The translations under genes and the position numbers were made by a program. From Chloroflexota bacterium (lineage in GTDB: Bacteria > Chloroflexota > Anaerolineae > Aggregatilineales > Phototrophicaceae), in contig JBCBKJ010000008.1 of assembly GCA_038522085.1 (NCBI GenBank), forward strand, positions 23,371 through 87,370: DNA of 64,000 bases, read 5' to 3'. Of this stretch, positions 387 to 37,861 are shown piece by piece. Each line of letters starts with the position of its first letter. Positions within the stretch are counted from its first letter, which is position 1. A model generated the notes under the pieces. It was given only the letters and a program-made list of their open reading frames with translations. It was not told the DNA's origin and ran no database searches.

Positions 387-1067
387 TTATGCTTTGCTTT
401 TGCCCCGTGAAAAATAAAGTGCTGTACCGATGAGTCCCCAAATGACACTGCCTATCATAACCGCTTGTTGGAGTGGTGTCAGCCCATCTGTGATACCTCC
501 ACCAGAGCTTGACGACACAATCGTGGATGGAGCTTCTGTATTATCTGTGTTTGTATCAGCGTCAGCTAGTGTTTCTGCTTCGGTACTTTCACCCGTATTG
601 AATGTTACTACATCACCTTCTACAGTGAAATCGCTTGTCCCACTGATAGTAACCTCTGTACCATCCGAAAGTGTTACCGTTGTCGTATCCTCAGCATCTG
701 TTTCAGCAGGCACGGCAGAAGGGTCTGGCATCATATCAGCCGTGATTTCGATGTTCACTAAGCCACCGTGTCCGGCTTTGCGCACCTGAACATCCCAGAA
801 GCCTTCAATTTCGTAATCTGGCATGAAGGTATACGAGCCATTTTCATCTGCAACGCCGACTTGCCAAGGATTGATGAGGTCGTTGGGTGCAAAAATAACA
901 ACTTGCCCGTCATTGAGGGCTTCGCCTGTGTCAAATTCTGCGGTGACAGTAACTTCGCCTGTCACATTATCAATAGTATGTGAAATGCGTACGCCATGCG
1001 CTAGAACAGGCACGGCGTACAACATCACGATACTCACTACGCTTAATATAGTTGCGAGTTTTCTCAT
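387..1067 (-). CDS. Secreted protein with a C-terminal membrane anchor; predicted mature N-terminus HGVRISH. Candidate periplasmic or membrane accessory component of the adjacent CbiM/NikM transporter
   Basis: 226 aa. Signal peptide MRKLATILSVVSIVMLYAVPVLA followed by HG. Acidic Thr/Asp-rich middle region. C-terminal hydrophobic helix (AVMIGSVIWGLIGTALYF) followed by SRGKSKA. AGGAG RBS 11 nt upstream. Only 30 nt from the cbiM start on the same strand. Confidence 0.7.
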   Translation of the reverse strand: MRKLATILSVVSIVMLYAVPVLAHGVRISHTIDNVTGEVTVTAEFDTGEALNDGQVVIFAPNDLINPWQVGVADENGSYTFMPDYEIEGFWDVQVRKAGHGGLVNIEITADMMPDPSAVPAETDAEDTTTVTLSDGTEVTISGTSDFTVEGDVVTFNTGESTEAETLADADTNTDNTEAPSTIVSSSSGGGITDGLTPLQQAVMIGSVIWGLIGTALYFSRGKSKA

Positions 1068-1092: not shown

Positions 1093-1893
1093 TTATTGCA
1101 ATGACGCTTCGTGGCAGTGACCTTCACCTACGTGACCCAATGAAGGCAGTACATTAACGAAGGTCACATACTCTTCTTCTGTCAGGCTCATTTCGAGGTC
1201 AGCGAGTGTGACATCGAGTACGCCATCGCTTGCCAATGGTGCAAGCATATCGAAACCTGGGGCTTCTGCGTTGAGTGAATCATCGAGTGGTGTTTCTGCA
1301 TCGCCAAAGATATGGTCGAAGTGGAACGTCAACTCAACATCGCCCATTGCACCTGCTTCTACGATACCTTTACGTTCGTCACCAACAAATGCGCCACAGG
1401 TATAGGCAAAAATTTCTTCAATTTTCACGAGAAATTCAACAGTTTCACCATCTTTGGAGGCTGTCCCATCCATCACAACGGTGAAACCTTCGTATTCACC
1501 TTCGGTAGCTGGTGTCATCATCCATGTGACAGCATTATAAAAGCCTGCGGGTGCATCTTCATAAGTATCAATCAGAATGGTATCTGCGTCTGCATCGCCT
1601 TCTGCAAGGTCAATGAAACGTTGGTCTGCTAAACCGACCATCACATCGCTACGTACCAATTCCCCTGCAAATGGGTCATATGGTGGTGTTGTTTGGTGTG
1701 CGCGAATAGCAGACACCGATACATAAACGTGTTCAAAATCAATTTGCCAACCGTCTTTAGAGACAAAGCCCTGACGTACAAAATCTTCACCGTTCGCACG
1801 GAACTCTAGTGTTCCGGTTTCCATTTCGTCCTGCGCGAATGTAACAGACAGCCCTAAGACGAAGATGAGAATGAGTAGAAGAACTTTTCGCAT
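1093..1893 (-). CDS. Secreted protein with a His/Cys-rich C-terminus (HVGEGHCHEA); putative periplasmic metal-binding protein, first gene of the cbiM-containing operon
   Basis: ORF 1093..1920. Start chosen at the internal Met (1893) that gives signal peptide MRKVLLLILIFVLGLSVTFAQ, with an AAAGGA RBS 9 nt upstream. C-terminal motif SLGHVGEGHCHEASLQ. AT-rich promoter-like region upstream (1921-2090). Confidence 0.65.
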   Translation of the reverse strand: MRKVLLLILIFVLGLSVTFAQDEMETGTLEFRANGEDFVRQGFVSKDGWQIDFEHVYVSVSAIRAHQTTPPYDPFAGELVRSDVMVGLADQRFIDLAEGDADADTILIDTYEDAPAGFYNAVTWMMTPATEGEYEGFTVVMDGTASKDGETVEFLVKIEEIFAYTCGAFVGDERKGIVEAGAMGDVELTFHFDHIFGDAETPLDDSLNAEAPGFDMLAPLASDGVLDVTLADLEMSLTEEEYVTFVNVLPSLGHVGEGHCHEASLQ

Positions 1894-2090
1894 ATGGTAG
1901 TATCCTTTTGAGTAGTTCAAATTTATACAAATTACTTACAAGTAGCAAGTGTTGCACATGTAAATTATTACATCAAGCCATGTGGACAGTTCTTAAGCTA
2001 ATCATTATACTTTCCTCGCGTTAGATAAGCCGACTTTATGAAACCACAACGAAACCAATACACAATAGTGTCAAAGAGCATGTATTTCCT

Positions 2091-3770
2091 ATGACAATGA
2101 CAGATAACAGCAATAAGAATGATTCGATTGAAGTCCGTTTAGAGCCTTGGATAGACCGTGCTGAATATATTATCGGGCTGACCATTATTATTATGGCGTG
2201 GAGCGCCGGCTGGGTTGATTTGTTCGCGTTCGAGAGCTTCTCAACGCAGGTATTCGGGCGCTACTCGTATTCATTATTTGCCTTCCTCGTTGTCTTCACA
2301 TTGATGTTTGGGTTTTGGTTATGGCTCATTATTTCAATTAAGGCATTAGATGGGCTACGAAGTTTCCTCGCATTTATGCAACGCTCTCCCCTGTTAGTGC
2401 TAGTGGTGTACATCGGTGTTTTTGGCATCCTGTATTCCATGACGATTGTAAAATACTGGTCGAACTTCACACTCATGCAGGGCATGATACTTACGATTAT
2501 GCTTGTATTCACGGTATTTCTGTTATTCACAAATATGGGTGAAGCACAAATATGGCGTAAGGTTATATGGGGCATTTTAGGCGTGTTCCTGCTTATTGAA
2601 GGCGGAATGCACGCGCTGGCATCACTAGGGACATTACCAGTAGAAAACACGACAGGCATGTATCAGTCCTATGGGCGTGTATACACAACAGGCGAACAGT
2701 CTGTGTATGCTACAACGAATCGCTATGGCTGGTATTATCCTGAGTTTGTCATAGACGATGAAAATTACAACATTGTCCTGAATGGTGATACCTTCATACG
2801 GGGCTTGGAAGTCGGCTATGATGACTTATTGGGTACGCAATTACAAGCACAATTTGAGGGTGACGAAACACAAATCATGCCCATGGGTCAGCCAGGTTTT
2901 GGGGCAAATACTTACCTGAGTACAGAATTTTATGGTTTCATCTGGGAAACGATGCAAGCTGATGAGATGGTAATTTTTGTGCATCTGGCAAATGATTTTC
3001 AGGTTGAGGAAGGGTCGCTAGGTGAGCGTCCTTCTTATGATATAAGAGATGATGGTATCACGATACTGCATCCTGACGATGATATTTTCCAGCATGTGAT
3101 TCATCACGTTATATTTGAAGGGCATCAACCGCTCATATTAATTGAGGTTATCATGAGTCACTCGTTCGTTGTGACGATGATTGAAGATGCGATTGCCAGT
3201 ACGAGACCGGACTTAGCTCCTTATGAATTGCACGCCCCCGTAAATGATTGGGAGCGTGAGCGTGTACCGCAGTATACGGTTGCTATGCCAATTGAATCAC
3301 GCACCGAGGATATGCCTTTCGGTACAGGCACTTTCTTGTTTGAGGTGGATGGTAGCGAGCGTGCAGATGAAAGCTATAAAATCTTGTTTGACCAAATAGC
3401 GATTTTGCGGGCAAGGCTAGAGGAACAAGGGATTTCAATACGTGTCGTGACGATTCCATTTTTCCCAGAAGCCTTCTATGAAACGCAATCAGGTACGAAT
3501 TGGGGTACAGAACTAGATGCCACTTACGATATTTTGTTACCAGAAGTACGCCTGACTGAGTATGCTAATGATGCTGGTATTCCGATTCTGGCGATGGGTG
3601 AATACATGTTTGAGACAGGTATGGATGTGAGTGATATTCAAGCCCTGTTCTTTGAAAATGGTAGTGGTGCATTCACCCCAGCCGGACATGCTTATTTTGC
3701 TGAGGCAGTATTTGGCTGTTTCTATGCAGAGATAACATCCGAAGCGACTGCTTGCTATTCAGACGATTGA
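2091..3770 (+). CDS. Polytopic membrane protein of unknown function with a large C-terminal soluble domain; first gene of the NRPS operon
   Basis: 559 aa. About 5-6 predicted TM helices in the first ~190 aa, then a ~370-aa non-membrane domain with His-rich patches (HVIHHVIFEGHQP) and a C-terminal segment with weak SGNH/DltD-like resemblance (NGDTF...PAGHAYFAEAV). Its TGA stop overlaps the ATG of the next gene (ATGA at 3768-3772). Confidence 0.6.
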   Translation: MTMTDNSNKNDSIEVRLEPWIDRAEYIIGLTIIIMAWSAGWVDLFAFESFSTQVFGRYSYSLFAFLVVFTLMFGFWLWLIISIKALDGLRSFLAFMQRSPLLVLVVYIGVFGILYSMTIVKYWSNFTLMQGMILTIMLVFTVFLLFTNMGEAQIWRKVIWGILGVFLLIEGGMHALASLGTLPVENTTGMYQSYGRVYTTGEQSVYATTNRYGWYYPEFVIDDENYNIVLNGDTFIRGLEVGYDDLLGTQLQAQFEGDETQIMPMGQPGFGANTYLSTEFYGFIWETMQADEMVIFVHLANDFQVEEGSLGERPSYDIRDDGITILHPDDDIFQHVIHHVIFEGHQPLILIEVIMSHSFVVTMIEDAIASTRPDLAPYELHAPVNDWERERVPQYTVAMPIESRTEDMPFGTGTFLFEVDGSERADESYKILFDQIAILRARLEEQGISIRVVTIPFFPEAFYETQSGTNWGTELDATYDILLPEVRLTEYANDAGIPILAMGEYMFETGMDVSDIQALFFENGSGAFTPAGHAYFAEAVFGCFYAEITSEATACYSDD

Positions 3771-4933
3771 TGAGTGCGCCGATGATGAATTTGCATTTTA
3801 CGGATGAGCAACAAGCCTTATGGGATAATATTGTTGCATTTGTTGGTACATCGCTGGATTTAGAAAACACGGTTGAAGCCGATAAACAAGGTGTTTTCAG
3901 CCACGAGAATTGGCGAGCGATTGCACAAAAAGGCATTCTTGGCTACTCTTTTGAAACTGCCTACGGTGGCACAGATTATGATATGGTCACGTCGATGGTG
4001 GCAACCGAAGCCTTGGGCTATGCGTGCCACGATAACGGTTTGCTACTCGCGGTCAACGGACAGATGTGGTCAGTACAATCGACATTGAGTCAATTTGCAA
4101 ATGATGAGCAAAAAGAACGCTATCTCAAACCACTCATTGAAGGCACAAAATTTGGCGCACACGGAGTAACAGAACCAGATTATGGGTCGCATGTTTTTGG
4201 GATGCAAACTCATGCTGAAAAAGTCAATGGCGGCTATGTGCTGAATGGCAAAAAAGCCTATGTTGGGCTTGCGCCAATAGCGGATGTAATTCTTGTTTAC
4301 GCGACGACTAATCCTGATTTAGGGTCATGGGGTATCACTGCATTTATAGTGGATGGTGACAGTGAAGGCATTCAAGCCAGTGCGCCAGCAGAAACAATGG
4401 GACTACGTACAACCGTCTTGGGCAGCATCATGTTTGAGAATGTCTTCGTGCCAGAAGAGAATATTTTAGGCAAAGTCGGTGCAGGTGCGAGCATATTCAA
4501 CAAGAGTGTCGAGCGCGAACGGTGTCTCGGCTTTGGTAGCCACGTTGGAGCGATGCGTCGGCAATTAGAGGCGACAATTGCCTATGCAAAAGGACGTAAA
4601 CAAGGCGACCAACCAATCAGCAAGTATCAAGCAGTATCACACAAAATTGCCGATATGCGCGTGCGTTTGGAGACATCACGCTTATTGCTGTATCAGTGTG
4701 CATCGCTGATAGATACAAATCAGCCGATTACTATGGCATCCGCGATAGCCAAATTGACTATCAGCGAAAATTTTGTTGCGAATAGTATGAACGCTTTGCG
4801 GATACACGGTGCGTATGGCTATCTCTCGGAAAGCGAAGTCGAACGGGATTTACGCGATTCGCTGGGTGGTATTATTTACGTCGGCACATCGGATATTCAA
4901 CGAAACATCATTGCAGGTCTACTGGAGTTATAA
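3770..4933 (+). CDS. Acyl-CoA dehydrogenase family protein; likely acyl/aminoacyl-S-carrier-protein dehydrogenase of the NRPS cluster
   Basis: ACAD fold motifs (GVTEPDYGSHVFGMQT..., C-terminal IYVGTSDIQRNIIAG). ORF track starts at a TTG at 3752; the first ATG at 3770 overlaps the upstream stop (translational coupling), so that start is used here. The stop TAA lies 2 nt before the next ATG. Confidence 0.85.
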   Translation: MSAPMMNLHFTDEQQALWDNIVAFVGTSLDLENTVEADKQGVFSHENWRAIAQKGILGYSFETAYGGTDYDMVTSMVATEALGYACHDNGLLLAVNGQMWSVQSTLSQFANDEQKERYLKPLIEGTKFGAHGVTEPDYGSHVFGMQTHAEKVNGGYVLNGKKAYVGLAPIADVILVYATTNPDLGSWGITAFIVDGDSEGIQASAPAETMGLRTTVLGSIMFENVFVPEENILGKVGAGASIFNKSVERERCLGFGSHVGAMRRQLEATIAYAKGRKQGDQPISKYQAVSHKIADMRVRLETSRLLLYQCASLIDTNQPITMASAIAKLTISENFVANSMNALRIHGAYGYLSESEVERDLRDSLGGIIYVGTSDIQRNIIAGLLEL

Positions 4934-4935
4934 AT

Positions 4936-6528
4936 ATGGAATTTTTGCTACACAAAGGCATGGACGTAACCGCAGAGCTTTTCCCAGATAAGCCTGTGAT
5001 GCGTTATTTAGACACGCAGTTGACCTATTCAGAGCTATCACAACGTAGCAATCAACTTGCAAATTTCTTGGAAGAACGTGGCTCACAACGTCGTGACCGC
5101 CTCGGCATTTTTCTCAATAAGAGCCTCGAAACATCTATCGCCGTATATGGCATTATGAAATCCGGCGGGGCGTTTATTCCGCTTGACCCCCAATCACCAA
5201 AATCACGCTTGCTGGATATTATCCGCAAGACAGGCATGAAGTGTGTGATTAGCCAGCCGGATAAGAAGAAAATCCTTGCGCAGGTTGCAGAAGAAGAGTC
5301 GCCGCTGGAATACGTCATCGGTATTGATACAGATGATGATATTGGCGTGCCGACCTACTCATGGGATGATGTCGCGCAATTTCCTGATAATACGATGCCT
5401 GATTTGCATTTGATTCAAGATGACCTCGCTTATATTTTGTTCACGTCAGGGTCTACTGGCGCACCCAAAGGTATGATGCACACACATGCAACAGGCATGA
5501 GTTATGTGCATATGTCTACTGATTTGTACGATGTGCGTCCTGATGATGTGTTAGGCAATCATTCGCCCCTACATTTTGATATGTCTACCTTCGAGTATCT
5601 AACGGGTCCTAATATCGGGACAACGACGATAGTTGTGCCAGAATCATACACGCTGTTCCCTGCCAATTTAACGCAGTTGATGCAAGATGAGCGTATGACA
5701 TTCTGGTACAGTGTGCCATTTGCGCTAATTCAGATTGTATTGCGTGGCGTACTAGAAAAACGTGATTTGTCGAGCTTCCGCTGGATTATGTACGGTGGCG
5801 AACCCTTCCCACCGAATTATTTAGCCGAGTTGATGAAGCATCTACCCAATGCACAAATCAGCAATGTATATGGTCCAGCCGAGACGAACCAAGTCAGCTA
5901 TTATACGATTCCTGACCCTGACACATGGGTTGACCCCGAAGCGAATATGCCAATCGGGACATTTGTACCGAATCTTGAGGGCTTGGTACTAGACGACGAT
6001 GATTCGATTGTTGAAGACGGTGAAGTTGGCGAGTTAGTCGTTCGCACACCACGCATGACCAAAGGCTATTGGGGACGTCCCGATTTGAATGCACGGGTTT
6101 TCTTCCGGCGCGAAATTATGCCTGATTTTGAGGAAGTATACTATCGCACTGGCGACCTAGTAAAATTGCGTGATGATGGTCTGTACGATTTCTTGGGTCG
6201 CAAAGACCATCAAGTGAAAGTGCGCGGGTATCGTGTTGAATTGCTAGAAGTTGAAAATGCGATGGCAAGCCACGATGCCGTTGAAGAAGGTGCAGCGTAT
6301 GCACTCAAAAATGACGATGGTAGCGATTATATCGAAGTTGCTGTGATTGTCGCTAAAGAAGCTACGCTGACAGTAGATGAGTTAATTGCACACATGAATG
6401 ACCGTCTGCCCCATTACGCTGTGCCTAGCAAGGTGAAGTTCATGGATAGCTTCCCGCGCACCGGCTCGGATAAAGTAGACCGCCGAGGTTTACAAGCAAT
6501 GGCAATGGAAGAAAAGAACAATTCGTAA
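4936..6528 (+). CDS. Stand-alone adenylation (AMP-binding) enzyme; starter-unit activating enzyme
   Basis: Core motifs LAYILFTSGSTGAPKG (A3), YRTGDLVKL (A8), GRKDHQVKVRGYRVELLEVE (A9/A10 region). 530 aa, typical A-domain size. Start ATG 2 nt after the ACAD stop. Confidence 0.9.
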   Translation: MEFLLHKGMDVTAELFPDKPVMRYLDTQLTYSELSQRSNQLANFLEERGSQRRDRLGIFLNKSLETSIAVYGIMKSGGAFIPLDPQSPKSRLLDIIRKTGMKCVISQPDKKKILAQVAEEESPLEYVIGIDTDDDIGVPTYSWDDVAQFPDNTMPDLHLIQDDLAYILFTSGSTGAPKGMMHTHATGMSYVHMSTDLYDVRPDDVLGNHSPLHFDMSTFEYLTGPNIGTTTIVVPESYTLFPANLTQLMQDERMTFWYSVPFALIQIVLRGVLEKRDLSSFRWIMYGGEPFPPNYLAELMKHLPNAQISNVYGPAETNQVSYYTIPDPDTWVDPEANMPIGTFVPNLEGLVLDDDDSIVEDGEVGELVVRTPRMTKGYWGRPDLNARVFFRREIMPDFEEVYYRTGDLVKLRDDGLYDFLGRKDHQVKVRGYRVELLEVENAMASHDAVEEGAAYALKNDDGSDYIEVAVIVAKEATLTVDELIAHMNDRLPHYAVPSKVKFMDSFPRTGSDKVDRRGLQAMAMEEKNNS

Positions 6529-6559: not shown

Positions 6560-6802
6560 GTGGAAGCACAAGCAAAGCTGAAACAATTCATCGAAGACGA
6601 ATTGCTCATTGGGCGCGATGTTGACCTTGAATATGATGACAATTTGCTCATTAGTGGCTTGGTCAACTCATTGGCGATTATGCGCTTGGTGAGTTTTGCA
6701 GAAGAACTTTACGAAGTAGAGATACCAGCCGAAGAAATCACTATCGAGAACTTCATCAGCATTAGTGCGATGAACACCTATCTGCAAACGCTCAAAAACT
6801 AA
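6560..6802 (+). CDS. Small acyl/peptidyl carrier protein (phosphopantetheine-binding)
   Basis: 80 aa, acidic, four-helix pattern with the putative Ppant serine in ISGLVNSLAIMRLV (GxxSL-like). GTG start preceded by an AGAGGA RBS. Located between the A enzyme and the NRPS. Confidence 0.75.
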   Translation: MEAQAKLKQFIEDELLIGRDVDLEYDDNLLISGLVNSLAIMRLVSFAEELYEVEIPAEEITIENFISISAMNTYLQTLKN

Positions 6803-6813
6803 ACCATACCCCT

Positions 6814-9800
6814 ATGACTAGCTCAATTCCATACGACACAAGCAATCTGACCAATGCACAGCAACTTATGTGGATTGGTCAGCAGTTGCAACCTGATGTA
6901 CCGCTTTACAATATGATGCAGACCTTTATCATACATGGCAATATAGATGTTGATGTCTTTACACAAGCGTTTGAAACCTTGGTCGCACAGTCAGAGAACA
7001 TGCGCCTATCTATCGAAGTCATAAATGACATTCCGATAGGACGTACCGATAGCACGAGCAAAAACGTCGTAGCGTTTTATGACTTTACCCAAGAAAGCGA
7101 CCCGCAAAGCCATTTTGACAACTGGTTGGATATACGACGCGGTCTGCGCTTTGATTTATCAGGTCAACTATATGATTGTGCTTTGATAAAGCTAGGTGAT
7201 GCACACTTTGTATGGTACTTGGCAATGCACCATATCATCACAGACGCAACGGCTTTTAAGCTGATATTTGAGCAAGTCAGTGATTATTACCTACGCCTCA
7301 AAGAGGGTGAATCGCTTAACTTAGCAGGCGAGGCATTACCACAGCATGCCGACTACAAAACGTATGAACAACTAGTTATCGAGAGCAAATCTCATGCAAA
7401 AGCGCGAGCATACTGGCAACAGCAGTTAGCGCATGAAGTCGAGCCAATTCGCTTTTATGCTCCTCAAGATGCCACTGATAAAACAGCATCTGTGCGCGTC
7501 AATGTACCGCTTGCTGATACCACGTGTGAAGCACTCGTAAACTACATTGAGAATGCACCTATCCGCAGTTTCAGCAAAGATTTGATAACCGCAAATGTAT
7601 TTGCTAGTTTGTTATTTTCGTATTTATATCGCATCAGTGGGCATAATAACCTGCGTTTGGGTATGCCATTAGCAAATCGAAGCACACCACAGTTTACACA
7701 GACGATAGGCGCGTTCATTGAAGTGTTATCACTGACATTAGATATTGCTGATGATGATAGCTTTGAAGATGTATTGCGCAAAGTCAACAAGGTAAATCTG
7801 AAAACACTCCAGCATTTATTGCCAGCCGTGAGTAGTGCTGAACACACGCATGCTTATGATGTGGTGATGAATTTCATCCCCTTGCATTTTAGTGATTTCG
7901 CGGAAATGCCAACTGAGGTTGCATGGGTACATTGCGGGCATGGTGACGCCAATCATAAACTCAATGTGCAGATTTATGATATGAATAACACGGGGCATTA
8001 TCAATTTTTCTTCGATTTCAACACGGATATATTCAATGCAGATGACCGTGCGCGTGCAATGACACATTTTGAAGCTGTCATTGAACAATGTATCGCTTCG
8101 CCACAAATCCCGCTATCAGACATTGATTTACTGACATCCGCCGAAAAAGAGGCTTTCTTAGGCGCTTTCAATGCGACAGATACACCTTATCAAGCAGATG
8201 CAACAATTGTTGACCTATTTGAAGCACAAGTTGCAAAAACACCGACTGCTATTACTGTCGTTGATAGCGAACGGCAACTCACCTACGCTGAATTGAACGG
8301 CAAAGCAAATGCTCTAGCACATGAGTTACAGTCGGTTGGTATTCGTACAGAGACATTTGTACCTGTTTGTATGCACCATAGCATTGACCTCGTAGTGGCT
8401 CTGTGGGGCATTCTAAAAGCAGGCGGCGTCTATGTTCCGCTTGACCCACAATATCCGACAGAACGTATGCAATATATTCTGGATGATATAGGTGATGTGC
8501 CGCTGATTATCACCGATGCCGAGCTTGAGGAGCAATTCACTGACATTGGCACAAAAACACGTATTGTTGATGCCGATAGTGTATCACTGCTAGATGACTT
8601 CACACATGATGTAACCCCTCAATCACTGGCTTATGTAATTTACACATCTGGGTCTACAGGCAATCCAAAAGGCGTGTTAGTAGAACATGATGGGCTAAGT
8701 AATTATGTTCAATGGGCAAGCAAACATTATGTACCAGATACTGCCGCTACATTTGCGCTGTACTCGTCGTTGGCGTTTGATTTGACTGTTACCTCTATCT
8801 ACGTGCCTTTGGTGACGGGGGGTAGTATTCGTGTGTATTACGATGCTGAAAACACAGGCACAGTCATTCGGGATATTTTCATCGACGCCGCCGTTGATGT
8901 TGTGAAGCTGACACCATCACATTTAGAACTCGTGCGCGATTTAGATTTATCCGCTACACGCATCAAACGTTTGATTGTAGGTGGGGAAGATTTCAAAGTA
9001 TCGCTGGCAAGGGCAATACATGATACTAGTGCCGGAAATATCGTACTTTTCAACGAGTATGGTCCAACTGAGGCGACAGTTGCTTGCATGTTGCACCAGT
9101 TCGATGCAAAAGGTGATACACAGGAATCCGTGCCAATTGGGACACCTGCTGACAATATGCGCGTTTATGTGCTGGACAAGCATCTGAAACCTGTGCCAAC
9201 GGGCATAGTCGGCGAAATGTATTTGTCGGGCGTAGGGGTAGCGCGTGCATATCTCAATCGTGACGTATTGAGCGCAGAACGCTTTTTGCCTGACCCCTTC
9301 GACAGCACACGACACATGTATAAATCTGGTGATTTGGCACGCTGGTTGCCGGATGGCACACTCACATTTCTGGGGCGTGCAGATAGACAGGTGAAATTAC
9401 GCGGGTATCGCATTGAACTCGGTGAAATTGAAGGACAACTCCATTCTATTTCAGGCGTGGAATCCGCGACGGTGGTAGTGCGGACTGAGCAACTTATTGG
9501 CTACTACGTGGCTGATGAGGCTATCACGGCTGAGATAGTAACATCGTATTTGAGTGAGCGCCTCCCCTCTTATATGATACCGACGCATGTGGTGCGCTTG
9601 GATGCAATGCCTCTGACAATCAACGGGAAAGTTGATTACGATGCCCTGCCAGATATTGTTTCAGGGAATGTAGATGGACATTCTGCTTACGTTGCACCCG
9701 AAAATGATGTGCAAGCAACGGTAGCGCATATCTGGCAAACAATTTTGCAGATTGAGCAAATTGGCATTCACAGTAATTTCTTCGATATTGGTGGACACTC

Positions 9801-9993
9801 CTTACCAGCGATTCGCGTTACCGGACGCATCAATGCTTATTTTGATATTGATATGCCACTAAAAACCTTCTTCACCAATCCAACCATTGCCGGTCAAGCA
9901 GATGCTATTGAACGCATTGTAAAAACAGAAATTGACGCGCTCAGTGATGACGAGGTTTTTCGTTTGCTGGAGGCAATAGACTATGGCGGATAA
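6814..9993 (+). CDS. Non-ribosomal peptide synthetase module 1 (C-A-T)
   Basis: Condensation His motif HHIITDATAF (HHxxxD). A domain: LAYVIYTSGSTGNPKG, YKSGDLARW, GRADRQVKLRGYRIELGEIE. Thiolation: FFDIGGHSLPAIRV. No E, MT or TE domain seen. Confidence 0.95.
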   Translation: MTSSIPYDTSNLTNAQQLMWIGQQLQPDVPLYNMMQTFIIHGNIDVDVFTQAFETLVAQSENMRLSIEVINDIPIGRTDSTSKNVVAFYDFTQESDPQSHFDNWLDIRRGLRFDLSGQLYDCALIKLGDAHFVWYLAMHHIITDATAFKLIFEQVSDYYLRLKEGESLNLAGEALPQHADYKTYEQLVIESKSHAKARAYWQQQLAHEVEPIRFYAPQDATDKTASVRVNVPLADTTCEALVNYIENAPIRSFSKDLITANVFASLLFSYLYRISGHNNLRLGMPLANRSTPQFTQTIGAFIEVLSLTLDIADDDSFEDVLRKVNKVNLKTLQHLLPAVSSAEHTHAYDVVMNFIPLHFSDFAEMPTEVAWVHCGHGDANHKLNVQIYDMNNTGHYQFFFDFNTDIFNADDRARAMTHFEAVIEQCIASPQIPLSDIDLLTSAEKEAFLGAFNATDTPYQADATIVDLFEAQVAKTPTAITVVDSERQLTYAELNGKANALAHELQSVGIRTETFVPVCMHHSIDLVVALWGILKAGGVYVPLDPQYPTERMQYILDDIGDVPLIITDAELEEQFTDIGTKTRIVDADSVSLLDDFTHDVTPQSLAYVIYTSGSTGNPKGVLVEHDGLSNYVQWASKHYVPDTAATFALYSSLAFDLTVTSIYVPLVTGGSIRVYYDAENTGTVIRDIFIDAAVDVVKLTPSHLELVRDLDLSATRIKRLIVGGEDFKVSLARAIHDTSAGNIVLFNEYGPTEATVACMLHQFDAKGDTQESVPIGTPADNMRVYVLDKHLKPVPTGIVGEMYLSGVGVARAYLNRDVLSAERFLPDPFDSTRHMYKSGDLARWLPDGTLTFLGRADRQVKLRGYRIELGEIEGQLHSISGVESATVVVRTEQLIGYYVADEAITAEIVTSYLSERLPSYMIPTHVVRLDAMPLTINGKVDYDALPDIVSGNVDGHSAYVAPENDVQATVAHIWQTILQIEQIGIHSNFFDIGGHSLPAIRVTGRINAYFDIDMPLKTFFTNPTIAGQADAIERIVKTEIDALSDDEVFRLLEAIDYGG

Positions 9994-12900
9994 CACGCAG
10001 ACCATTACCATCGAGGAGGCACGGCGCAAACTACTTGAATATCGGTTACAGGGTAAATCTCTCAATCAAGCCTCTGCTCTCAAGGCAATTCCACCTGTAC
10101 CAGACGATGTAGACCCGCCAACTACCTACGGTCAGCAAGGGATGTGGCTGATACAGCAATCTCAGCCGGATGCTGTACCATACAATTCAGCGAACATTAT
10201 GCGCCTTGAAGGCATGCTGTATACAGATGTATTCAAGCGTGCTGTACAGATAGTCATTGAGCGCCACGCTGTCTTTCGGACGAATTTCGTGCTGGCAGGT
10301 GACGCGATTGTGCAAAGCGTCCGTGATAGTATCGAGGATATTGTTTCTGTAGAGACGATTACCCCCGCGCAACGTGACGATGCCATAGCACGGTATATCG
10401 ACACGCCGTTTGATTTGGCGAATGATGTGTTACTACGTGTCGGCATTTTACGAGAAAGCGAACAAGCCTATACGATTGTCATTTGTGCGCATCACATTAT
10501 TGTGGATAATTGGTCGCTGACTGTATTGTTATGGCAAGAGATTAGCGATAGCTACCAAACCTTGATAACCAACCAACCGATGGATTTGCCAACTATCGAA
10601 GCACAGTATGCTGATTATACCTATTGGCAACGACAAAAAGAATCTACAGAGGCATATCAGAAACAACTTGCGTACTGGCAAAATCAGCTTGCAGATGCCC
10701 CTCCTCTGTTGCAGTTACCCACAGATAGACCACGCCCAGCGAAACAACAATACGATGGCGAAGTCGTTTACATGTATTTGGATGAGGCACTATCTGCACA
10801 GATACACACACTAAGCCGTGATGCCAAAAGCACGCTGTTTGTCACTTTGCTGAGTGCGTACTATGTGTTGCTCAGTCGCTACACCGCACAAGATGATATT
10901 AGCGTGGGTACATCGGTAGATATGCGCACACATCCACAACTAGAGAATACGATTGGCTATTTCTTGAATACGGTGGTTCTGCGCGAAAATATAAAGCCTG
11001 AGCTATCTTTTGGTTCATTACTAACAAAAGTGCGCGATACAACACTGTCTGCCTTTGCGAATCAAAATGTGGAATTTGAGCAAGTCGTCGAAAAATTAGG
11101 TATCGGACGCAATAGTGGGTTCAATCCGCTATTTCAGACGATGTTTGTGATGTGGAACGAAACTTCCTCTGCGCCAAAGATACCGACCTTCACTATGACA
11201 CCCCAACAAGTACATCCTAGTGCATCGAAGTTTGATATATCTTTTTATGCACAGCCGGAGCGCGATGGGCGCATTTTGGTAGCCATTGAATATGCGACCC
11301 ACTTATTCGATAAGGCAACCATAAAACGCATGCAGGGGCATTATAAGACGATTTTGCGCTCTGTGGTCGCTGAACCAGAGACAGCTATTAAAGATATTCG
11401 CTTGTTGACACATGCAGAAAATCAACTGCTGTTAGAGACATGGACAGACACAGCCCAAGATTATCCACGCGAAAAACTTGTACATGACCTTATTGCTGAA
11501 AACCCAGCCGACGCTATCGCAGTATGGGACGAAAGCGGTCAATTGGCATACGGGGAGTTGAACGCACGCGCCAATCAGATTGCGCATCACTTAGTTACAT
11601 TGGGTATCACAGCTGGTACACCCATTGGCATTTGTCTCGAACGTAGCCATGAGATGCTAATTAGCATTGTAGCGATACTAAAAGCGGGGGGTGCCTATGT
11701 ACCCATTGACCCTTCTTATCCGCAGGAACGCATCGAAACCATTGTTGCAGATGCAGGTATCAACATCATTTTGACGCAATCGCACTTGGAAACAACATTG
11801 GCTGACCGCGCACAACATACTATCACGATTGATGATAGCGAGGCGTTCGCTGATTACCCGACAACGCTACCTGATACAGAGGCAACACCCGACACGCTAG
11901 CGTATATCATTTACACAAGTGGTTCGACAGGCAAGCCTAAAGGGGTACGCATCACACATCGTAACCTCGTGCATTCAACAACAGCGCGTGAAAGTGTGTA
12001 TCCACTTCAAGTAGAGCGATTTTTGTTGTTGTCGTCATTTGCCTTTGATAGTTCGCTGGTTGGCATCTTCTGGACATTATGCGGAGGTGGAACGCTCTGT
12101 TTGCCACCACAAGATGCTGAAAAAGATGTCACACGGATTGCCGAATTGATTGCACAGTACAGCATTACGCATTTGTTGGCATTGCCGTCTTTGTATCAAA
12201 TCTTGCTTGAATTTGCCGATGATAATCAACTCGCGTCGTTGAATACCGTTATGGTTGCTGGCGAAGCCTGCCCGATTGCACTGGTGCGGACACATTACGA
12301 GCTTTTGCCGGATGCCACGCTCTGGAACGAATATGGTCCGACAGAAGGCACAGTTTGGTCAAGTGTGTGGGAAGTGCCAGCCGACACCGACAAAATGCTT
12401 ATCGGAAAAGCCATTCCCAATATGCAAACCTATATTTTGGATAGCCAGCAAGTGCCTGTGCCTGTCGGGGTATATGGGGAGGTGTACATCGGCGGTGAAG
12501 GTATCGCACAGGGCTATCACGAGCGTCCCGATTTGACTGCCGAGCGTTTTATTGGCAATCCCTTTGGTACAGGACGTTTATATCGTACAGGGGATATTGC
12601 ACGGTATCTTACAGATGGCAATATTGAATTTGCTGGACGCGATGACAATCAGGTGAAAATTAGCGGATACCGTATTGAGCTAGGTGAAGTGGAGAATGCG
12701 TTCTCACGCTTAGATGCTGTTCAACATGTTGTGGTCGTCGTGCGTGAGATAGCAGGTCAAAAACGCTTGGTCGCCTTTGTATCGACGACAGAAACTGCAA
12801 CTAGTGATGATATTCGTCAGCAAGTGCGCCCGACCTTGCCTGCTTACATGATTCCCACACATATTGAAATTCTTGACGCCTTGCCACGTAATCCGAATGG

Positions 12901-14050
12901 TAAACTTGACCGCAAAGCATTAGAAACATATCCGATTGCACGTGCTGATAACGCACCTGTATCCGCAAAAGCAACCAACGATGTTGAAAAGCAACTACTG
13001 ACTATCTGGCAAGAATTGTTGGGAGCTACTGTGCCGAGTGTCGATGCTGATTTCTTTGAATTAGGGGGCTATTCCCTACTAGCAATTCGGATGTTTGCGC
13101 GCATCAAGCAAGCATTTGATGTGGAGTTACCCATTTCACTGATTATGGAATCACCTACTATTCGCGGTCTGGCAGAGACAATTGCACAAGATGGCATCGG
13201 CGAGAAAACACTTTTCACGCTGGTAGTTGAAGGCGATAAACCGCCGTTGTATTGCTTGCAAGTGAACAAATTTGGCTTGATTCATTACCAGACATTAGCA
13301 CAACAATTGAATGCGAATCGTCCCGTGATTGGCTTGGGTTTGCCAGATGCTCTCGATACGGCGGAAACAACTATCGAGGAAGTTGCCGAACATAATGCAA
13401 GAACGATACTTGCCCATCAAACCGAAGCGCCATTTTACATTGCTGGACTGTCTGTTGCTGGGCTGGTCGCTTATGAAACAGCACGCAAATTAAAGTCAGA
13501 CGGTCATGAGGTATATGTCATCTTATTTGACACACAAGGACCCGATTATCCAACACGCATTGCGCCAATGGATGCAATCAGGAAACGTGCTGGCATCATG
13601 TGGCATCAATTAACGACGTGGGATGGAACAGCACGCGATGAACTCATCGGCTATTGGCGCTGGCTATTGGCATATCGACTGGGGTATCAGGTACAGAAAC
13701 GCAGTAATTGGGTACGCGCAAAACTCGGTTTGCCTGTGGTGACATCAGATGACCAAGAATTTAGGAATGCCATTGATAGCGATGCTATCCAAGCACAGAT
13801 AGATGCCTATTTTGCAGGCAATCGCGCTGATGACATACCGATTTTGCTCTATCGCAGTCATTTGCAACCCATCACCAGCGAACCAGAGTGGGCGCTTGGC
13901 TGGGATAAATTTGTGCCAGAAAATCATATTGATGTGCATCATGTGGGGGCGCCACATACAGATTTACTGAAATCGCAGTATATCAATCAAATTGTGACGC
14001 ATTTGCGCGATTGGCTTACTGAGAAAGACAGCTCACACAAGCAAAAATAA
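9983..14050 (+). CDS. Non-ribosomal peptide synthetase module 2 with terminal thioesterase (C-A-T-TE)
   Basis: Start overlaps the module-1 stop. C: HHIIVDNWS. A: LAYIIYTSGSTGKPKG, YRTGDIARY, GRDDNQVKISGYRIELGEVE. T: FFELGGYSLLAIRM. C-terminal alpha/beta-hydrolase TE with GLSVAGLVAYETARKL (GxSxG). Confidence 0.95.
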   Translation: MADNTQTITIEEARRKLLEYRLQGKSLNQASALKAIPPVPDDVDPPTTYGQQGMWLIQQSQPDAVPYNSANIMRLEGMLYTDVFKRAVQIVIERHAVFRTNFVLAGDAIVQSVRDSIEDIVSVETITPAQRDDAIARYIDTPFDLANDVLLRVGILRESEQAYTIVICAHHIIVDNWSLTVLLWQEISDSYQTLITNQPMDLPTIEAQYADYTYWQRQKESTEAYQKQLAYWQNQLADAPPLLQLPTDRPRPAKQQYDGEVVYMYLDEALSAQIHTLSRDAKSTLFVTLLSAYYVLLSRYTAQDDISVGTSVDMRTHPQLENTIGYFLNTVVLRENIKPELSFGSLLTKVRDTTLSAFANQNVEFEQVVEKLGIGRNSGFNPLFQTMFVMWNETSSAPKIPTFTMTPQQVHPSASKFDISFYAQPERDGRILVAIEYATHLFDKATIKRMQGHYKTILRSVVAEPETAIKDIRLLTHAENQLLLETWTDTAQDYPREKLVHDLIAENPADAIAVWDESGQLAYGELNARANQIAHHLVTLGITAGTPIGICLERSHEMLISIVAILKAGGAYVPIDPSYPQERIETIVADAGINIILTQSHLETTLADRAQHTITIDDSEAFADYPTTLPDTEATPDTLAYIIYTSGSTGKPKGVRITHRNLVHSTTARESVYPLQVERFLLLSSFAFDSSLVGIFWTLCGGGTLCLPPQDAEKDVTRIAELIAQYSITHLLALPSLYQILLEFADDNQLASLNTVMVAGEACPIALVRTHYELLPDATLWNEYGPTEGTVWSSVWEVPADTDKMLIGKAIPNMQTYILDSQQVPVPVGVYGEVYIGGEGIAQGYHERPDLTAERFIGNPFGTGRLYRTGDIARYLTDGNIEFAGRDDNQVKISGYRIELGEVENAFSRLDAVQHVVVVVREIAGQKRLVAFVSTTETATSDDIRQQVRPTLPAYMIPTHIEILDALPRNPNGKLDRKALETYPIARADNAPVSAKATNDVEKQLLTIWQELLGATVPSVDADFFELGGYSLLAIRMFARIKQAFDVELPISLIMESPTIRGLAETIAQDGIGEKTLFTLVVEGDKPPLYCLQVNKFGLIHYQTLAQQLNANRPVIGLGLPDALDTAETTIEEVAEHNARTILAHQTEAPFYIAGLSVAGLVAYETARKLKSDGHEVYVILFDTQGPDYPTRIAPMDAIRKRAGIMWHQLTTWDGTARDELIGYWRWLLAYRLGYQVQKRSNWVRAKLGLPVVTSDDQEFRNAIDSDAIQAQIDAYFAGNRADDIPILLYRSHLQPITSEPEWALGWDKFVPENHIDVHHVGAPHTDLLKSQYINQIVTHLRDWLTEKDSSHKQK

Positions 14051-14797
14051 GCGCAATGGACGTTGTTTGCCATGATAGGCAATCGCACCCATAAATTGCT
14101 CGTTTATGTCGATATGATGCAAGTGCCATTTCAGCCTGTGCATATTGCTGAGACGCGGGTCAATGCGTGTGACGCGTGCTGGCTGGTATGATTTCAGCGT
14201 CACATCAAAAGCATCCAACGGGACACTTAATCCGCGTCCATCTGCTTTAATAAAAGACTCTTTTCGTGTCCAGCAGCGATAAAATGCACCGACTTGTTCA
14301 GCAGACGAGAGGCTAAAAAGTGCAGTCTGCTCTGCTGGTGAAAAATGATGTTTCGCAACTGTCATGAGGTCGGGCAGAGGCTTTATAGCTTCAATATCCA
14401 CACCTATATCTTGCTTACATATTGCAATTAAAACGCGTTCTTCTGAGTGCGATAAATTGAAGAAAATACGCTCTGTATCGAGATAAGGTTTATTATATTC
14501 ACTATACGAAAACGAAAGCATATTCGGTTCACGCTGGAGATAGTTACCAAGCAAGTATCGTAAAATACCCCTGCGGACAGTACCGCGTGCGCGTAGTTGG
14601 GGGGTGTAATAGCGTTGAACACGCTCTTTTTCTCCTACACTCAGCATAGGATACAAGCTATCAACAACACTTTTTGGCTGGTCGTGTGTAAATTGCCAGA
14701 TGTGAATGCTGTCATCAAGCGGCGGTCTGGTATGTACAGATTGCCAATATTCTGTATCAGTATCTGTAATGGGTTGCCATACAAGGGGCAATTGCAT
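14033..14797 (-). CDS. Sfp-type 4'-phosphopantetheinyl transferase
   Basis: PPTase motifs FNLSHSEERVLIAI...IGVDIEAI and WTRKESFIKADGRGL (W/KEA motif). ORF extends to 14950. The start is placed at the internal Met (MQLPLVWQ, 14797), which has an AGGTGA RBS and avoids overlapping the divergent lipoprotein gene. The 3' end overlaps the NRPS stop by 18 nt (convergent). Confidence 0.8.
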   Translation of the reverse strand: MQLPLVWQPITDTDTEYWQSVHTRPPLDDSIHIWQFTHDQPKSVVDSLYPMLSVGEKERVQRYYTPQLRARGTVRRGILRYLLGNYLQREPNMLSFSYSEYNKPYLDTERIFFNLSHSEERVLIAICKQDIGVDIEAIKPLPDLMTVAKHHFSPAEQTALFSLSSAEQVGAFYRCWTRKESFIKADGRGLSVPLDAFDVTLKSYQPARVTRIDPRLSNMHRLKWHLHHIDINEQFMGAIAYHGKQRPLRLFLLV

Positions 14798-14897
14798 CGT
14801 GTTATCACCTACTAAACGAAATGAGCTATCCACTTCATATGTTTTGTACATCATGTTAGCATATGCCAGCGCAAGTAAGATAAGGAGTATGTAATAC

Positions 14898-15560
14898 GTG
14901 CAACGCTGGATATGGATGTGCCTATTCATTTTATGTGCATGTGGTGGCACAGGCGAGGATATTATCGAAATTGATTATGAAGGCGACCTCGTTGCGTATG
15001 CAACAGAAGCATCGCAAATACGCGAGGATATTGTTATCAGCCGTACTGATATTGCGTCTACAGTGGAAGCGGGCAATGCTCAAACATCACAATTTGAGCG
15101 TTACAATGACTTGTTACGCAGTACGGTTGTTGTTGCTATTCCGCCAACATCCGATGCGCGTATTGTAGCGAATGATACGATTGGCGCGCTCCCCGTTGAA
15201 GTATATGATTTGTCTGATGGCGAGATGCGCTTTGTGCAGATTGGTCCGGCTGGAGAAATTAATGATGAAAATTGCTTCATCGCCAAACAACAGTTTTTCA
15301 GAACGGATTCAGTTGCTGTATTCATGACAGCAGTCGCGCTTAATTTGCGTGCAGGTACAACAGTTAGTGCTGAGTGGCGCTATGGTGGGGAGCTTGTATA
15401 TTCTAATTCATGGGTCGCACCACAATCCGTACCCTATCAGTGTGTTTCCTTAACAATGCGCCCATCTGATGCTGAGTTTGCGACAGGGAATTGGACGGTC
15501 ACGCTGTTTGTAAATGGCAACCCTGACGAACCCAAGTCCTTCACCATTTTCAGCAACTAG
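14898..15560 (+). CDS. Hypothetical lipoprotein
   Basis: 220 aa. N-terminal MQRWIWMCLFILCACGGTG, a lipobox-like L-C-A-C after a hydrophobic stretch. No recognisable catalytic motifs. Confidence 0.55.
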   Translation: MQRWIWMCLFILCACGGTGEDIIEIDYEGDLVAYATEASQIREDIVISRTDIASTVEAGNAQTSQFERYNDLLRSTVVVAIPPTSDARIVANDTIGALPVEVYDLSDGEMRFVQIGPAGEINDENCFIAKQQFFRTDSVAVFMTAVALNLRAGTTVSAEWRYGGELVYSNSWVAPQSVPYQCVSLTMRPSDAEFATGNWTVTLFVNGNPDEPKSFTIFSN

Positions 15561-36096: not shown

Positions 36097-36172
36097 AGCT
36101 CATCCCATTCGTTAAAAACGGTGAATGACGCTCAGGCATCATCCACCGTTGATAGACACAATTGTTTACGTA

Positions 36173-37630: not shown

Positions 37631-37861
37631 TGGTCTAATCCTGTACTGAATATTGGTAGACAGTATAGCGATACTGTCCGTTGTTTTACAGCAAAAATCT
37701 TACACGTAGGTTAGGCGTATATGGTGTATCATGCTCAGTGTGCCATAAATCATAATTCATGAAAATGCGTGAGTGCCAGCGTTTAGCATTCGTTCACCCT
37801 ACGCGAACACACGGACTTTGCTATAATCCGCGCTCGGCATTGTTTCTGGAGATAGTCCCAT

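Follow-up and report, generated by a model that had tools for sequence, protein, structure and literature searches.

We analysed a stretch of 64,000 nucleotides (nt) from a Chloroflexota bacterium (contig JBCBKJ010000008.1, positions 23,371 to 87,370; hereafter the window, numbered from its first letter) and describe here the gene for a membrane protein of 559 amino acids (aa) that stands at the head of a small nonribosomal peptide synthetase (NRPS) cluster. We are confident that this protein represents a new, unnamed SGNH clade, which is extracytoplasmic, embedded in the membrane and genetically tied to this type of NRPS in Chloroflexota. Tentatively, we propose that it acts as an accessory to a metallophore, a role that is weighed below against four others. 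The features of the gene are as follows.

2091..3770, + strand: gene for the 559-aa membrane protein, stop codon included (clade A of the unnamed SGNH-fold family; from the open reading frame (ORF) list, the sequence and homologues)
2160..2624, + strand: predicted five-helix transmembrane (TM) domain, residues ~24-178, with the N-terminus and loops 2-3 and 4-5 on the cytoplasmic side
2598..2612, + strand: E170 to position 174 on TM5 (E-x-x-x-Q in the family, E-G-G-M-H here; from the alignment)
2658..3725, + strand: predicted extracytoplasmic SGNH-fold domain, residues ~190-545, with an insertion of ~120 residues after block III
2784..2792, + strand: SGNH block I, G232-D233-T234, with Thr at the nucleophile position (alignment)
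2982..2996, + strand: H298, then SGNH block III, A300-N301-D302 (alignment)
3093..3107, + strand: H335-x-x-x-H339 on the insertion helix, residues 328-343 (alignment; helix from the AlphaFold model)
3660..3689, + strand: SGNH block V, G524-S-G-A527-F-T-P-A-G-H533, with Ala at the position of the catalytic His (alignment)
3717..3755, + strand: C543...C555, a Cys pair specific to the long clade, putative disulfide (alignment)
3768..3772, + strand: TGATG, the stop of the membrane-protein gene overlapping an in-frame ATG of the next gene (sequence)

An SGNH fold with a degenerate catalytic site

An AlphaFold model of the protein, built on 16 sequences (pLDDT 80.3, pTM 0.77), has the three-layer alpha/beta/alpha SGNH fold in its C-terminal domain. 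When this domain was compared with solved structures, SGNH/GDSL hydrolases were found throughout the match list: CgnD (8a2n; 213 residues aligned) scored 14.3, many GDSL esterases 12-14, PatB 12.1, the OatA C-domain 10.7 and DltD 9.5. Foldseek returned the same SGNH/GDSL families with weak E-values. An earlier note on this DNA had seen faint SGNH/DltD-like features in the protein; the SGNH fold is now firm, and the likeness is to the superfamily in general and not to DltD in particular.

That note had also been unable to assign the protein to a described family, and our searches agree with it. Pfam and NCBIfam gave nothing above threshold for the 559-aa protein, no match to PF00657, PF13472 or PF19040 was found at E<=1, and the family profile found no solved structure by sequence. 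Sub-threshold matches to YfhO (E 0.0035) and MSC_0624 (E 0.068) were dismissed as compositional, arising from TM bias, and the matches of the 16-homologue profile to adenylate cyclase 9 and V-ATPase subunit e among PDB sequences (E>=0.04) were set aside for the same bias.

For the analysis of the SGNH blocks, we aligned 125 near-full-length representatives of the family. Blocks I (G232-D233-[S/T]234), II (G266) and III ([G/A]300-N301-D302) are present in the family, together with a block V-like segment (G524-x-G526-H527-[F/L]-[T/S]-x-x-G532-H533). The oxyanion-hole residues of blocks II and III are widely kept (G266 in 120/125, N301 in 98/125 and D302 in 124/125), and the 559-aa protein has all of them. 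Its block I does not carry the nucleophilic Ser of the GDS motif, having T234 at that place; column 234 has Ser in 74 of the 125 sequences, Thr in 29 and other residues in 22. The DxxH motif of block V is likewise missing, with Ala527 for the His and Gly524 for the Asp. Gly takes the place of this Asp, three residues before the His, across the whole family, while His527 itself is found in 87/125 sequences, that is, in 51/53 of the short clade and 36/72 of the long clade described below. Ala527 is carried by three independent assemblies that agree with one another, so a sequencing error was ruled out. Judged from the alignment, the 559-aa protein is without the general-base His, and its canonical dyad is incomplete.

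The long clade has other His residues. Position 298 is His in 62% of its members and F/Y in the short clade, and positions 335 and 339 are E/Q/D and R/K/N, respectively, in the short clade. As the insertion with the HxxxH motif starts right after block III, which is an active-site loop, we suspect that these new His residues line the old active site.

Two clades of the family

An exhaustive HMMER search of 1.84 billion cluster representatives gave 193 family members at E<=1e-3 and 85 at E<=1e-30. We split the aligned sequences by the presence of both H335 and H339 into clade A (long, n=72), to which the 559-aa protein belongs, and clade B (short, n=53); the counts are of 50%-identity representatives and not of independent evolutionary events. 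The constancy of H335 and H339 in clade A is thus by construction. Signals independent of this definition are that the clades differ in how far the dyad is retained and that the split co-varies with length, with the Cys pair and with gene context. The median length is 454 aa in clade B and 541 aa in clade A, and the residues before the last TM helix number ~60 and ~150 (five helices in all), respectively. C543 is found in 81% and C555 in 78% of the long clade, compared to 6% each in the short clade, and we infer that the pair fits a disulfide in the extracytoplasmic domain. Conserved residues in TM1-3 and their outer loops are also specific to clade A.

The two clades differ strongly in their catalytic residues. 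Position 234 is Ser in 50/53 members of clade B, while clade A has Thr in 27, Ser in 24 and other residues in 21 of its 72 members; Asn301 is kept in 50/53 and 48/72, respectively. S/T234 and His527 occur together in 51/53 members of clade B and in 32/72 of clade A. The other 40 members of clade A are without one or both catalytic residues, and their genes are still intact and syntenic. The relaxed dyad pattern was seen as well when we tabulated the residues at 26 loci associated with NRPS genes or with genes for HupE/UreJ permeases. Both H335 and H339 are present in 23 of these 26 loci, and positions 335/339 are H/D in L013, Y/H in L015 and D/H in L016.

Our reading of these patterns is that clade B would consist of working enzymes and that clade A would have been freed from selection on the Ser-His dyad and selected for a new set of residues. 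The best explanation appears to be that clade A, which is specific to Chloroflexota, derived from true membrane-bound SGNH enzymes and gained three extra TM helices, the HxxxH motif and the Cys pair. Clade B ties the whole family to the SGNH superfamily by sequence too, since it matched Pfam PF13472 (Lipase_GDSL_2; 12/41, best 1.1e-6), PF00657 (Lipase_GDSL; 7/41) and PF19040 (AT3-fused SGNH; 2/41).

The two loci found outside Chloroflexota both belong to clade B. The clade B gene of Limisphaerales lies among polysaccharide genes (Wzx-like flippase, GT4 glycosyltransferases, WecG, epimerase), and that of Bifidobacteriaceae among sugar-nucleotide enzymes. At two further loci (L033, 8001-11972; L035, 8001-12873), dyad-intact clade B genes stand directly upstream of carbamoyltransferase, SxtJ-like and DUF5989 genes. 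This set is known from saxitoxin clusters (SxtI/J/K); at these two loci it occurs without a toxin context.

Membrane domain and topology

Hydropathy gave five hydrophobic spans within the first 180 residues, and two AlphaFold models place the TM helices at residues ~24-46, 60-98 (kinked), 100-125, 127-146 and 154-178. The earlier description of a 559-aa polytopic membrane protein with a large soluble C-terminal domain therefore stands, as the ORF, the hydropathy and the model agree on it; of the ~5-6 helices then estimated, five are borne out by hydropathy and AlphaFold and a sixth is not. Structure comparison gave no structural relative of the five-helix domain.

The topology was read from charge counts by the positive-inside rule. 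Lys and Arg residues of the 559-aa protein gather in the N-terminus and in loops 2-3 and 4-5, and among the 72 clade A members these two loops have ~3 K+R each, compared to ~0.9 in loops 1-2 and 3-4. This pattern places the N-terminus in the cytoplasm and the SGNH-like domain outside the cell. The most widely kept residues of the membrane domain are on TM5, with E170 in 124/125 and Q174 in 116/125 of the aligned representatives, and both are kept in both clades.

Conserved association with NRPS genes

Gene contexts were taken from the contigs of six homologues and from a scan of one genome per GTDB species (25 loci), all of them metagenome-assembled genomes. The scan used the 16-sequence alignment, a 45-sequence one being too divergent for a pattern-based scan, and the NRPS parts of all loci were located by tblastn with the window's own proteins. 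This gave 29 distinct clade A loci, the window included, of which 27 had enough downstream sequence to be judged.

We observed that NRPS genes follow the clade A gene on the same strand within ~3 kb in 25 of the 27 assessable loci. The usual order after the clade A gene is a trio of dehydrogenase, adenylation (A) enzyme and peptidyl carrier protein (PCP), followed by modules of condensation (C), A and thiolation (T) domains, or else C-A or A-first modules directly. The adjacency holds down to 26-30% protein identity and across differing NRPS architectures. All the NRPS- or HupE-associated loci examined are from Chloroflexota (Anaerolineae, Promineifilaceae, Phototrophicaceae, Caldilineaceae and others). 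No NRPS was found within 3.6 kb of the clade A gene in L016. The complete Chloroflexota chromosome CP070785 (L021) has hupE and the homologue followed only by a 270-aa C-domain fragment (11624-12436), and this looks like a decayed cluster with the two membrane genes surviving.

The tie to NRPS genes claimed in the earlier note is thus upheld for clade A by co-occurrence, while the more distant clade B lies outside NRPS clusters. That note had held that a generic fold, or homologues widespread outside biosynthetic clusters, would speak against it. Both were found in part, the fold being generic and the distant short clade standing outside NRPS clusters, and the protein's own clade is still NRPS-tied.

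Some loci have additional genes next to the homologue. A PhyH-type dioxygenase, which might hydroxylate a residue, is encoded between the homologue and the dehydrogenase in L027 (3939-4886) and L028 (11612-12559). An unannotated ~9-TM protein of 539-586 aa directly follows the homologue only in L017 (11664-13424) and L018 (11649-13268); it has no Pfam family. We considered it as a relative of the 559-aa protein and found it unrelated and absent elsewhere.

The gene and the start of its neighbour

The ORF at 2091..3770 (+) opens with ATG. An identical protein is held by NCBI as 'MAG: hypothetical protein AAFR81_05975 [Chloroflexota bacterium]', and 15 more full-length homologues were found with E-values of 1e-65 to 1e-173; on this sequence evidence, it is a real gene. 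The motifs quoted for the protein in the earlier note, NGDTF (residues 231-235), HVIHHVIFEGHQP (335-347) and PAGHAYFAEAV (530-540), were all found in their places.

The TGA stop (3768-3770) and an ATG in the dehydrogenase frame (3770-3772) have one A in common. This overlap, pointed out before, is there in the sequence. Three in-frame ATGs open the dehydrogenase gene (3770, 3782 and 3785). The dehydrogenases of homologous loci start with MEF/MDFSW-x-x-Q and align with the ATG at 3785 (MNLHFTDEQQ...) and not with that at 3770, so the overlap is perhaps not the start in use, and the true start may lie 14 nt after the membrane-protein stop, without overlap. The spacer between the two genes is 38-48 nt in four homologous loci, and there is a 1-nt overlap in one (L004). 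The tight co-directional packing is therefore conserved, and the literal overlap of stop and start is not.

The best promoter candidate upstream of the operon is given below; the consensus scan found no more sigma-70-like sites in this region than expected from shuffled sequence.

1983..2011, + strand: best sigma-70-like promoter match, TGGACA-17-TATACT (consensus scan, 10/12 matches)

The NRPS cluster and its predicted product

The membrane-protein gene is followed by these genes.

3770..4933, + strand: enzyme of the acyl-CoA-dehydrogenase fold, most similar to the prolyl-PCP dehydrogenases PigA and RedW (N, M and C domains of Pfam Acyl-CoA_dh)
4936..6528, + strand: stand-alone amino-acid adenylation enzyme, code DMFYMGVQVK, type not assigned (TIGR01733)
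6560..6802, + strand: stand-alone carrier protein, 80 aa (weak NCBIfam ACP matches; PP-binding homologues; same position in other loci)
6814..9993, + strand: NRPS module 1, C-A-T, Asn-type code DLTKIGEVAK (Pfam domains, code extraction)
9983..14050, + strand: NRPS module 2, C-A-T and thioesterase (TE), His-type code DSVLMAEVWK (Pfam domains, code extraction)
14033..14950, - strand: 4'-phosphopantetheinyl transferase (Pfam ACPS, E 6.5e-18)

The dehydrogenase matched the NCBIfam models of PigA (E 7.5e-102, 341 bits) and RedW (E 1.4e-95, 320 bits) below their curated cut-offs and far above other dehydrogenase models. The stand-alone A enzyme scored 347.8 bits against the amino-acid adenylation model TIGR01733 (cut-off 317.4), which shows that it is not a fatty-acyl ligase. 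Specificity codes were extracted by alignment to the GrsA Phe-A domain, which itself gave the expected DAWTIAAICK. The Asn assignment of the module 1 code leans in part on the classical Stachelhaus table. [quoted passage not shown] Almost every locus keeps an Asn-type module (DLTKIGEV[AG]) ahead of a His-type one (DS[AVT]L[IM]AEVW), even where the first unit of the line differs: this unit is an in-line Pro-like module (DVQFVAQVV) in L025, and its code is another one in L024, L031 and L032. An ornithine cyclodeaminase gene lies between the homologue and the dehydrogenase in L017 (13532-14599) and L018 (13289-14356); this enzyme supplies proline.

The earlier note had spoken of a lipopeptide pathway. 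The likeness of the dehydrogenase to PigA/RedW, the amino-acid type of the stand-alone A enzyme, which passes TIGR01733, and the Asn- and His-type codes of the two modules together led us to reject this assignment, since they indicate a tripeptide and not a lipopeptide. The product is predicted to be pyrrole-2-carboxyl-Asn-His, or Pro-Asn-His in some genomes.

Peptides with His at position 3 form the amino-terminal copper- and nickel-binding (ATCUN) arrangement, in which four nitrogens coordinate Cu(II)/Ni(II). By chemical analogy, an N-terminal pyrrole-2-carboxamide would give the same ring sizes. Taking the His-3 peptide together with the permease genes described next, the most economical reading of the cluster would be that it makes a secreted metal carrier. 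We found no description of such a system in the literature searched (HupE + NRPS, ATCUN + NRPS metallophores, nickelophore + NRPS).

Association with nickel/cobalt permease genes

HupE/UreJ proteins are secondary nickel/cobalt permeases. We found a HupE/UreJ gene beside or near the clade A gene in 22 of the 29 loci. In 18 distinct loci it immediately precedes the clade A gene on the same strand (the L021 copy matched PF04955 with E 2.4e-53); in L013 it comes directly after that gene, and in L008, L015 and L023 it is within 7 kb. The loci with hupE directly upstream are L002, L011, L017, L018, L020-L022, L024, L025, L027, L028, L031, L032 and others. One of these genes is located as follows.

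9429-9989 of L002: HupE/UreJ gene

This is the strongest signal from the context, an adjoining HupE/UreJ gene in most loci, and it was left out of the roles listed in the earlier note (export, tailoring, immunity). In L016, the homologue lies between hupE and a gene for a NicO-family nickel transporter (2320-4095; PF03824, E 3.9e-16), whose product, of 591 aa, has a secreted domain at its N-terminus.

One 707-aa family member (P0031) has an N-terminal extension, of which residues 14-164 run along the HupE profile, with a degenerate signature, GFLRPLM for GFLHPLxGxDH. The match, obtained with filters off, is weak (150 residues, 20 bits, high bias). The HupE profile with default filters gave nothing, and neither did HupE in BLAST against two family members of ~700 aa. 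P0031 could be a permease-accessory fusion.

The window itself has two divergent genes upstream of the operon, neither with relatives among the PDB sequences.

387..1067, - strand: secreted, C-terminally anchored protein with a weak match to NikL, a nickel/cobalt ECF subunit (NCBIfam NF058648)
1093..1920, - strand: divergent secreted DUF4382-type protein with a His/Cys-rich C-terminus, HVGEGHCHE (NCBI names of homologues)

The match of the first protein to NF058648 has E 9e-7 and 29 bits, with a cut-off of 100. A fused 378-aa relative of the second protein carries the JGI name 'ABC-type cobalt transport system substrate-binding protein', and the second protein is possibly a metal-related neighbour. 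Homologues of the pair occur beside the cluster in L008, and one (DUF4382-type) in L013. As the secreted pair belongs to a very large family (1,891 proteins), it lends only weak support to a link with metals. The window ORFs scanned, up to position 53,703, included neither nickel enzymes nor metal transporters.

Regulatory elements were searched as well. No palindrome was common to the upstream regions of 21 loci, and no Rfam riboswitch was found upstream of hupE in six loci or in window positions 1-21000. A SAM riboswitch (87 bits) lies at 6395-6502 (+) of L017, ~3 kb upstream of hupE, and is probably unrelated to the cluster.

A proposed role in metal acquisition and its alternatives

We propose that clade A proteins are extracytoplasmic metallophore accessories, which would bind the metal-loaded peptide or its metal and hand it over without hydrolysis. 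The proposal is tentative, and we regard it as possible with the balance tilted somewhat against it. The protein would be the dedicated accessory of the small NRPS predicted to make pyrrole-2-carboxyl(or Pro)-Asn-His. Its outward-facing domain would bind the metal-loaded peptide, or the metal of the peptide, at the remodelled site, and the metal would pass by ligand exchange onto His residues of the SGNH-fold domain and then to the membrane permease; the 559-aa protein would neither cleave nor acylate. Candidate ligands are H335 and H339, which define the clade, and H298, found in 62% of it. A binding domain held in the membrane would suit cells without a periplasm able to retain a soluble binding protein. 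More doubtful is the complete three-part system of metal acquisition in Chloroflexota, in which an NRPS-made tripeptide would chelate Ni(II), Cu(II) or Co(II), a His-lined former SGNH protein would act as the receptor that strips off the metal, and HupE/UreJ would take it up.

Several points weigh against this proposal. The SGNH fold is not known as a metal- or metallophore-binding scaffold. The window has no HupE gene within its 64 kb, and the closest relatives, L001 and L007, have a glycosyltransferase gene upstream instead of HupE. About 44% of clade A (32/72) keeps an intact S/T-His dyad, so catalysis may be ancestral here and may persist in some members. E170 and Q174 are conserved in the short clade too and so do not explain a new function, and the five-helix domain with its conserved residues exceeds the needs of a simple anchor. 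Finally, the binding of metal by the predicted peptide is reasoned from the coordination chemistry of ATCUN peptides.

The retained dyads bear directly on a second explanation, in which the protein is an active extracytoplasmic hydrolase or acyltransferase that tailors, matures or degrades the NRPS peptide, for instance by taking off a protecting group once the peptide has been exported or by cutting the metal-loaded form so that the metal is set free. Siderophore esterases and the SGNH-fold peptidase CgnD are parallels for it, and the enzyme CgnD, the top structural neighbour, itself cuts a peptide in the biosynthesis of a natural product. SGNH blocks I-III are recognisable, S/T and His are kept in 32 of the 72 clade A members, and the conserved HxxxH could furnish a substitute base or a catalytic metal. 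We nevertheless hold this explanation to be unlikely, because the 559-aa protein has Thr as nucleophile and lacks both the His (Ala527) and the Asp (Gly524) of block V, because 40 of the 72 clade A members have lost one or both catalytic residues from intact, syntenic genes, and because a TE domain is already built into the NRPS and the predicted pathway includes no ester or acyl step.

The membrane domain could instead be the active part. Besides HupE, the cluster has no other conserved polytopic membrane protein, there is no MFS, ABC or RND gene at positions 1-20600 of the window, and the TM residues W37, G40, Q97, W155, R156 and E170 are conserved. The five helices might then export the peptide or give self-protection, with the outer domain as an accessory. 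We found this distinctly unlikely, as no transporter family was matched, the fold is not transporter-like, and E170, the most conserved TM residue, is also present in the short clade outside NRPS clusters.

The protein might also be a scaffold in the membrane to which the NRPS enzymes or the HupE permease are tethered, with the SGNH-like domain as a structural relic. This would account for the fixed place of the gene, first in the NRPS operon and directly after hupE, for the relaxed catalytic site and for a conserved cytoplasmic N-terminal helix (EERLQPWID); the extension of P0031, with its weak alignment to the HupE profile (20 bits, high bias), points the same way. This is quite improbable in our view, since a relic would not keep the clade-defining HxxxH, the Cys pair and many conserved core positions, and the evidence for a fusion in P0031 is weak.

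It is highly improbable that the protein is an envelope-glycan O-acyl esterase or transferase like the short clade, with its NRPS adjacency devoid of functional meaning: short-clade genes do lie among polysaccharide and sugar-nucleotide genes or carbamoyltransferase-SxtJ-DUF5989 sets, and a glycosyltransferase is directly upstream in two close loci, but the same-strand adjacency to NRPS genes in 25/27 assessable loci, down to 26-30% identity, and the catalytic residues missing from the 559-aa protein speak against it.

Other genes of the window

A 220-aa ORF with no family (14898-15560, +) follows the phosphopantetheinyl transferase gene. Large secreted proteins with bacterial SH3 domains are encoded at 15617-17317 (+) and 17411-19576 (-), one of them also having periplasmic-binding-protein and CARDB domains. 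Positions 34447-41791 and 49949-53703 hold genes of the cell envelope, for MurJ, a TM protein resembling lysylphosphatidylglycerol (LPG) synthase, a penicillin-binding protein transpeptidase, RodA/FtsW, a Wzy_C protein and a YfhO-like protein. The housekeeping genes for topoisomerase I, DprA and SRP54 are also in the window.

Significance

If the metallophore-accessory proposal is true, clade A would be a natural case of an enzyme fold that was re-used, with a catalytic dyad that became dispensable and a new His pair that was gained. In the literature searched, HupE/UreJ permeases are stand-alone, without a binding-protein partner, and the 559-aa protein would then be the first known accessory protein for them. 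The permease gene, the clade A gene and the Asn-His NRPS point, if this reading holds, to a secreted peptide carrier of Ni, Co or Cu, which would be the first of its type for nickel or cobalt to be made by an NRPS, from a phylum, Chloroflexota, with almost no characterised natural products. As the predicted product is a chemically synthesisable tripeptide, its binding of metal, its binding to the ectodomain and the rescue of growth are directly testable. Even if the metal reading is wrong, the gene still marks this NRPS family reliably in genomes.

Comparison with known systems

With the SGNH/GDSL superfamily (E. coli TesA/TAP, acetyl-xylan esterases, Ape1, PatB), the family has blocks I (GD[ST]), II (G) and III (xND) in common, as well as the block V-like segment G-x-G-[H]-[FL]-[TS]-x-x-G-H. 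Unlike these enzymes, the 559-aa protein has Thr for Ser, Ala for the block V His and Gly for the Asp; it adds the ~120-residue insertion with HxxxH and the five-helix domain, and the dyad is dispensable across its clade. In its mode of action, it would resemble a classical GDSL esterase least.

CgnD, the leader-peptide hydrolase of crocagin biosynthesis (PDB 8a2n), is soluble, has a Ser-containing active site and belongs to a RiPP pathway and not to an NRPS pathway. Slow turnover and an unfavourable geometry of the Ser are described in the CgnD paper. It is 14% identical to the 559-aa protein and lacks a membrane domain and HxxxH, and it is not linked to metal transport.

DltD, which acts in teichoic acid D-alanylation, is less similar to the 559-aa protein than generic GDSL esterases are. 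It has a single N-terminal TM helix and an intact Ser-His-Asp triad, stands in an operon with DltA, DltB and DltC and needs the MBOAT protein DltB; the 559-aa protein has none of these features, and the window proteins tested gave no MBOAT or DltD family match, so membership of this family was rejected. The AT3-SGNH O-acyltransferases (OatA, OafA/OafB) were rejected likewise, as PF01757 and its 10-11 helices were not detected and the catalytic residues are incomplete. Membership among the ClbP-type prodrug-activating peptidases was rejected too: these have a periplasmic domain of the S12 beta-lactamase fold, C-terminal TM helices and, in the NRPS, an N-acyl-D-Asn prodrug motif, while the protein described here has an SGNH fold and an N-terminal TM domain; the starter of its cluster is an aminoacyl-PCP with a dehydrogenase, unlike the starter C domain with an acyl-Asn module of the ClbP type.

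In its proposed role, taken from gene context, the protein would be like the extracytoplasmic siderophore esterases IroE, PfeE and Cee and the metallophore receptors CntA and NikA, as it would face outwards and deal with a metal-loaded secreted chelator beside an uptake transporter. Unlike it, these have alpha/beta-hydrolase or solute-binding folds and work with ABC or TonB systems. Membership among the siderophore esterases (Fes, IroE, PfeE; alpha/beta-hydrolase fold, GxSxG) was rejected, the fold being SGNH with no match to an alpha/beta-hydrolase family. Among such systems, neither an SGNH-fold protein nor a HupE/UreJ partner was found in the literature searched, and the three-gene system would stand further from anything described if the peptide and the metal role are confirmed. 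The 559-aa protein is thus SGNH at the level of the fold and, at the level of function, has probably been re-purposed.

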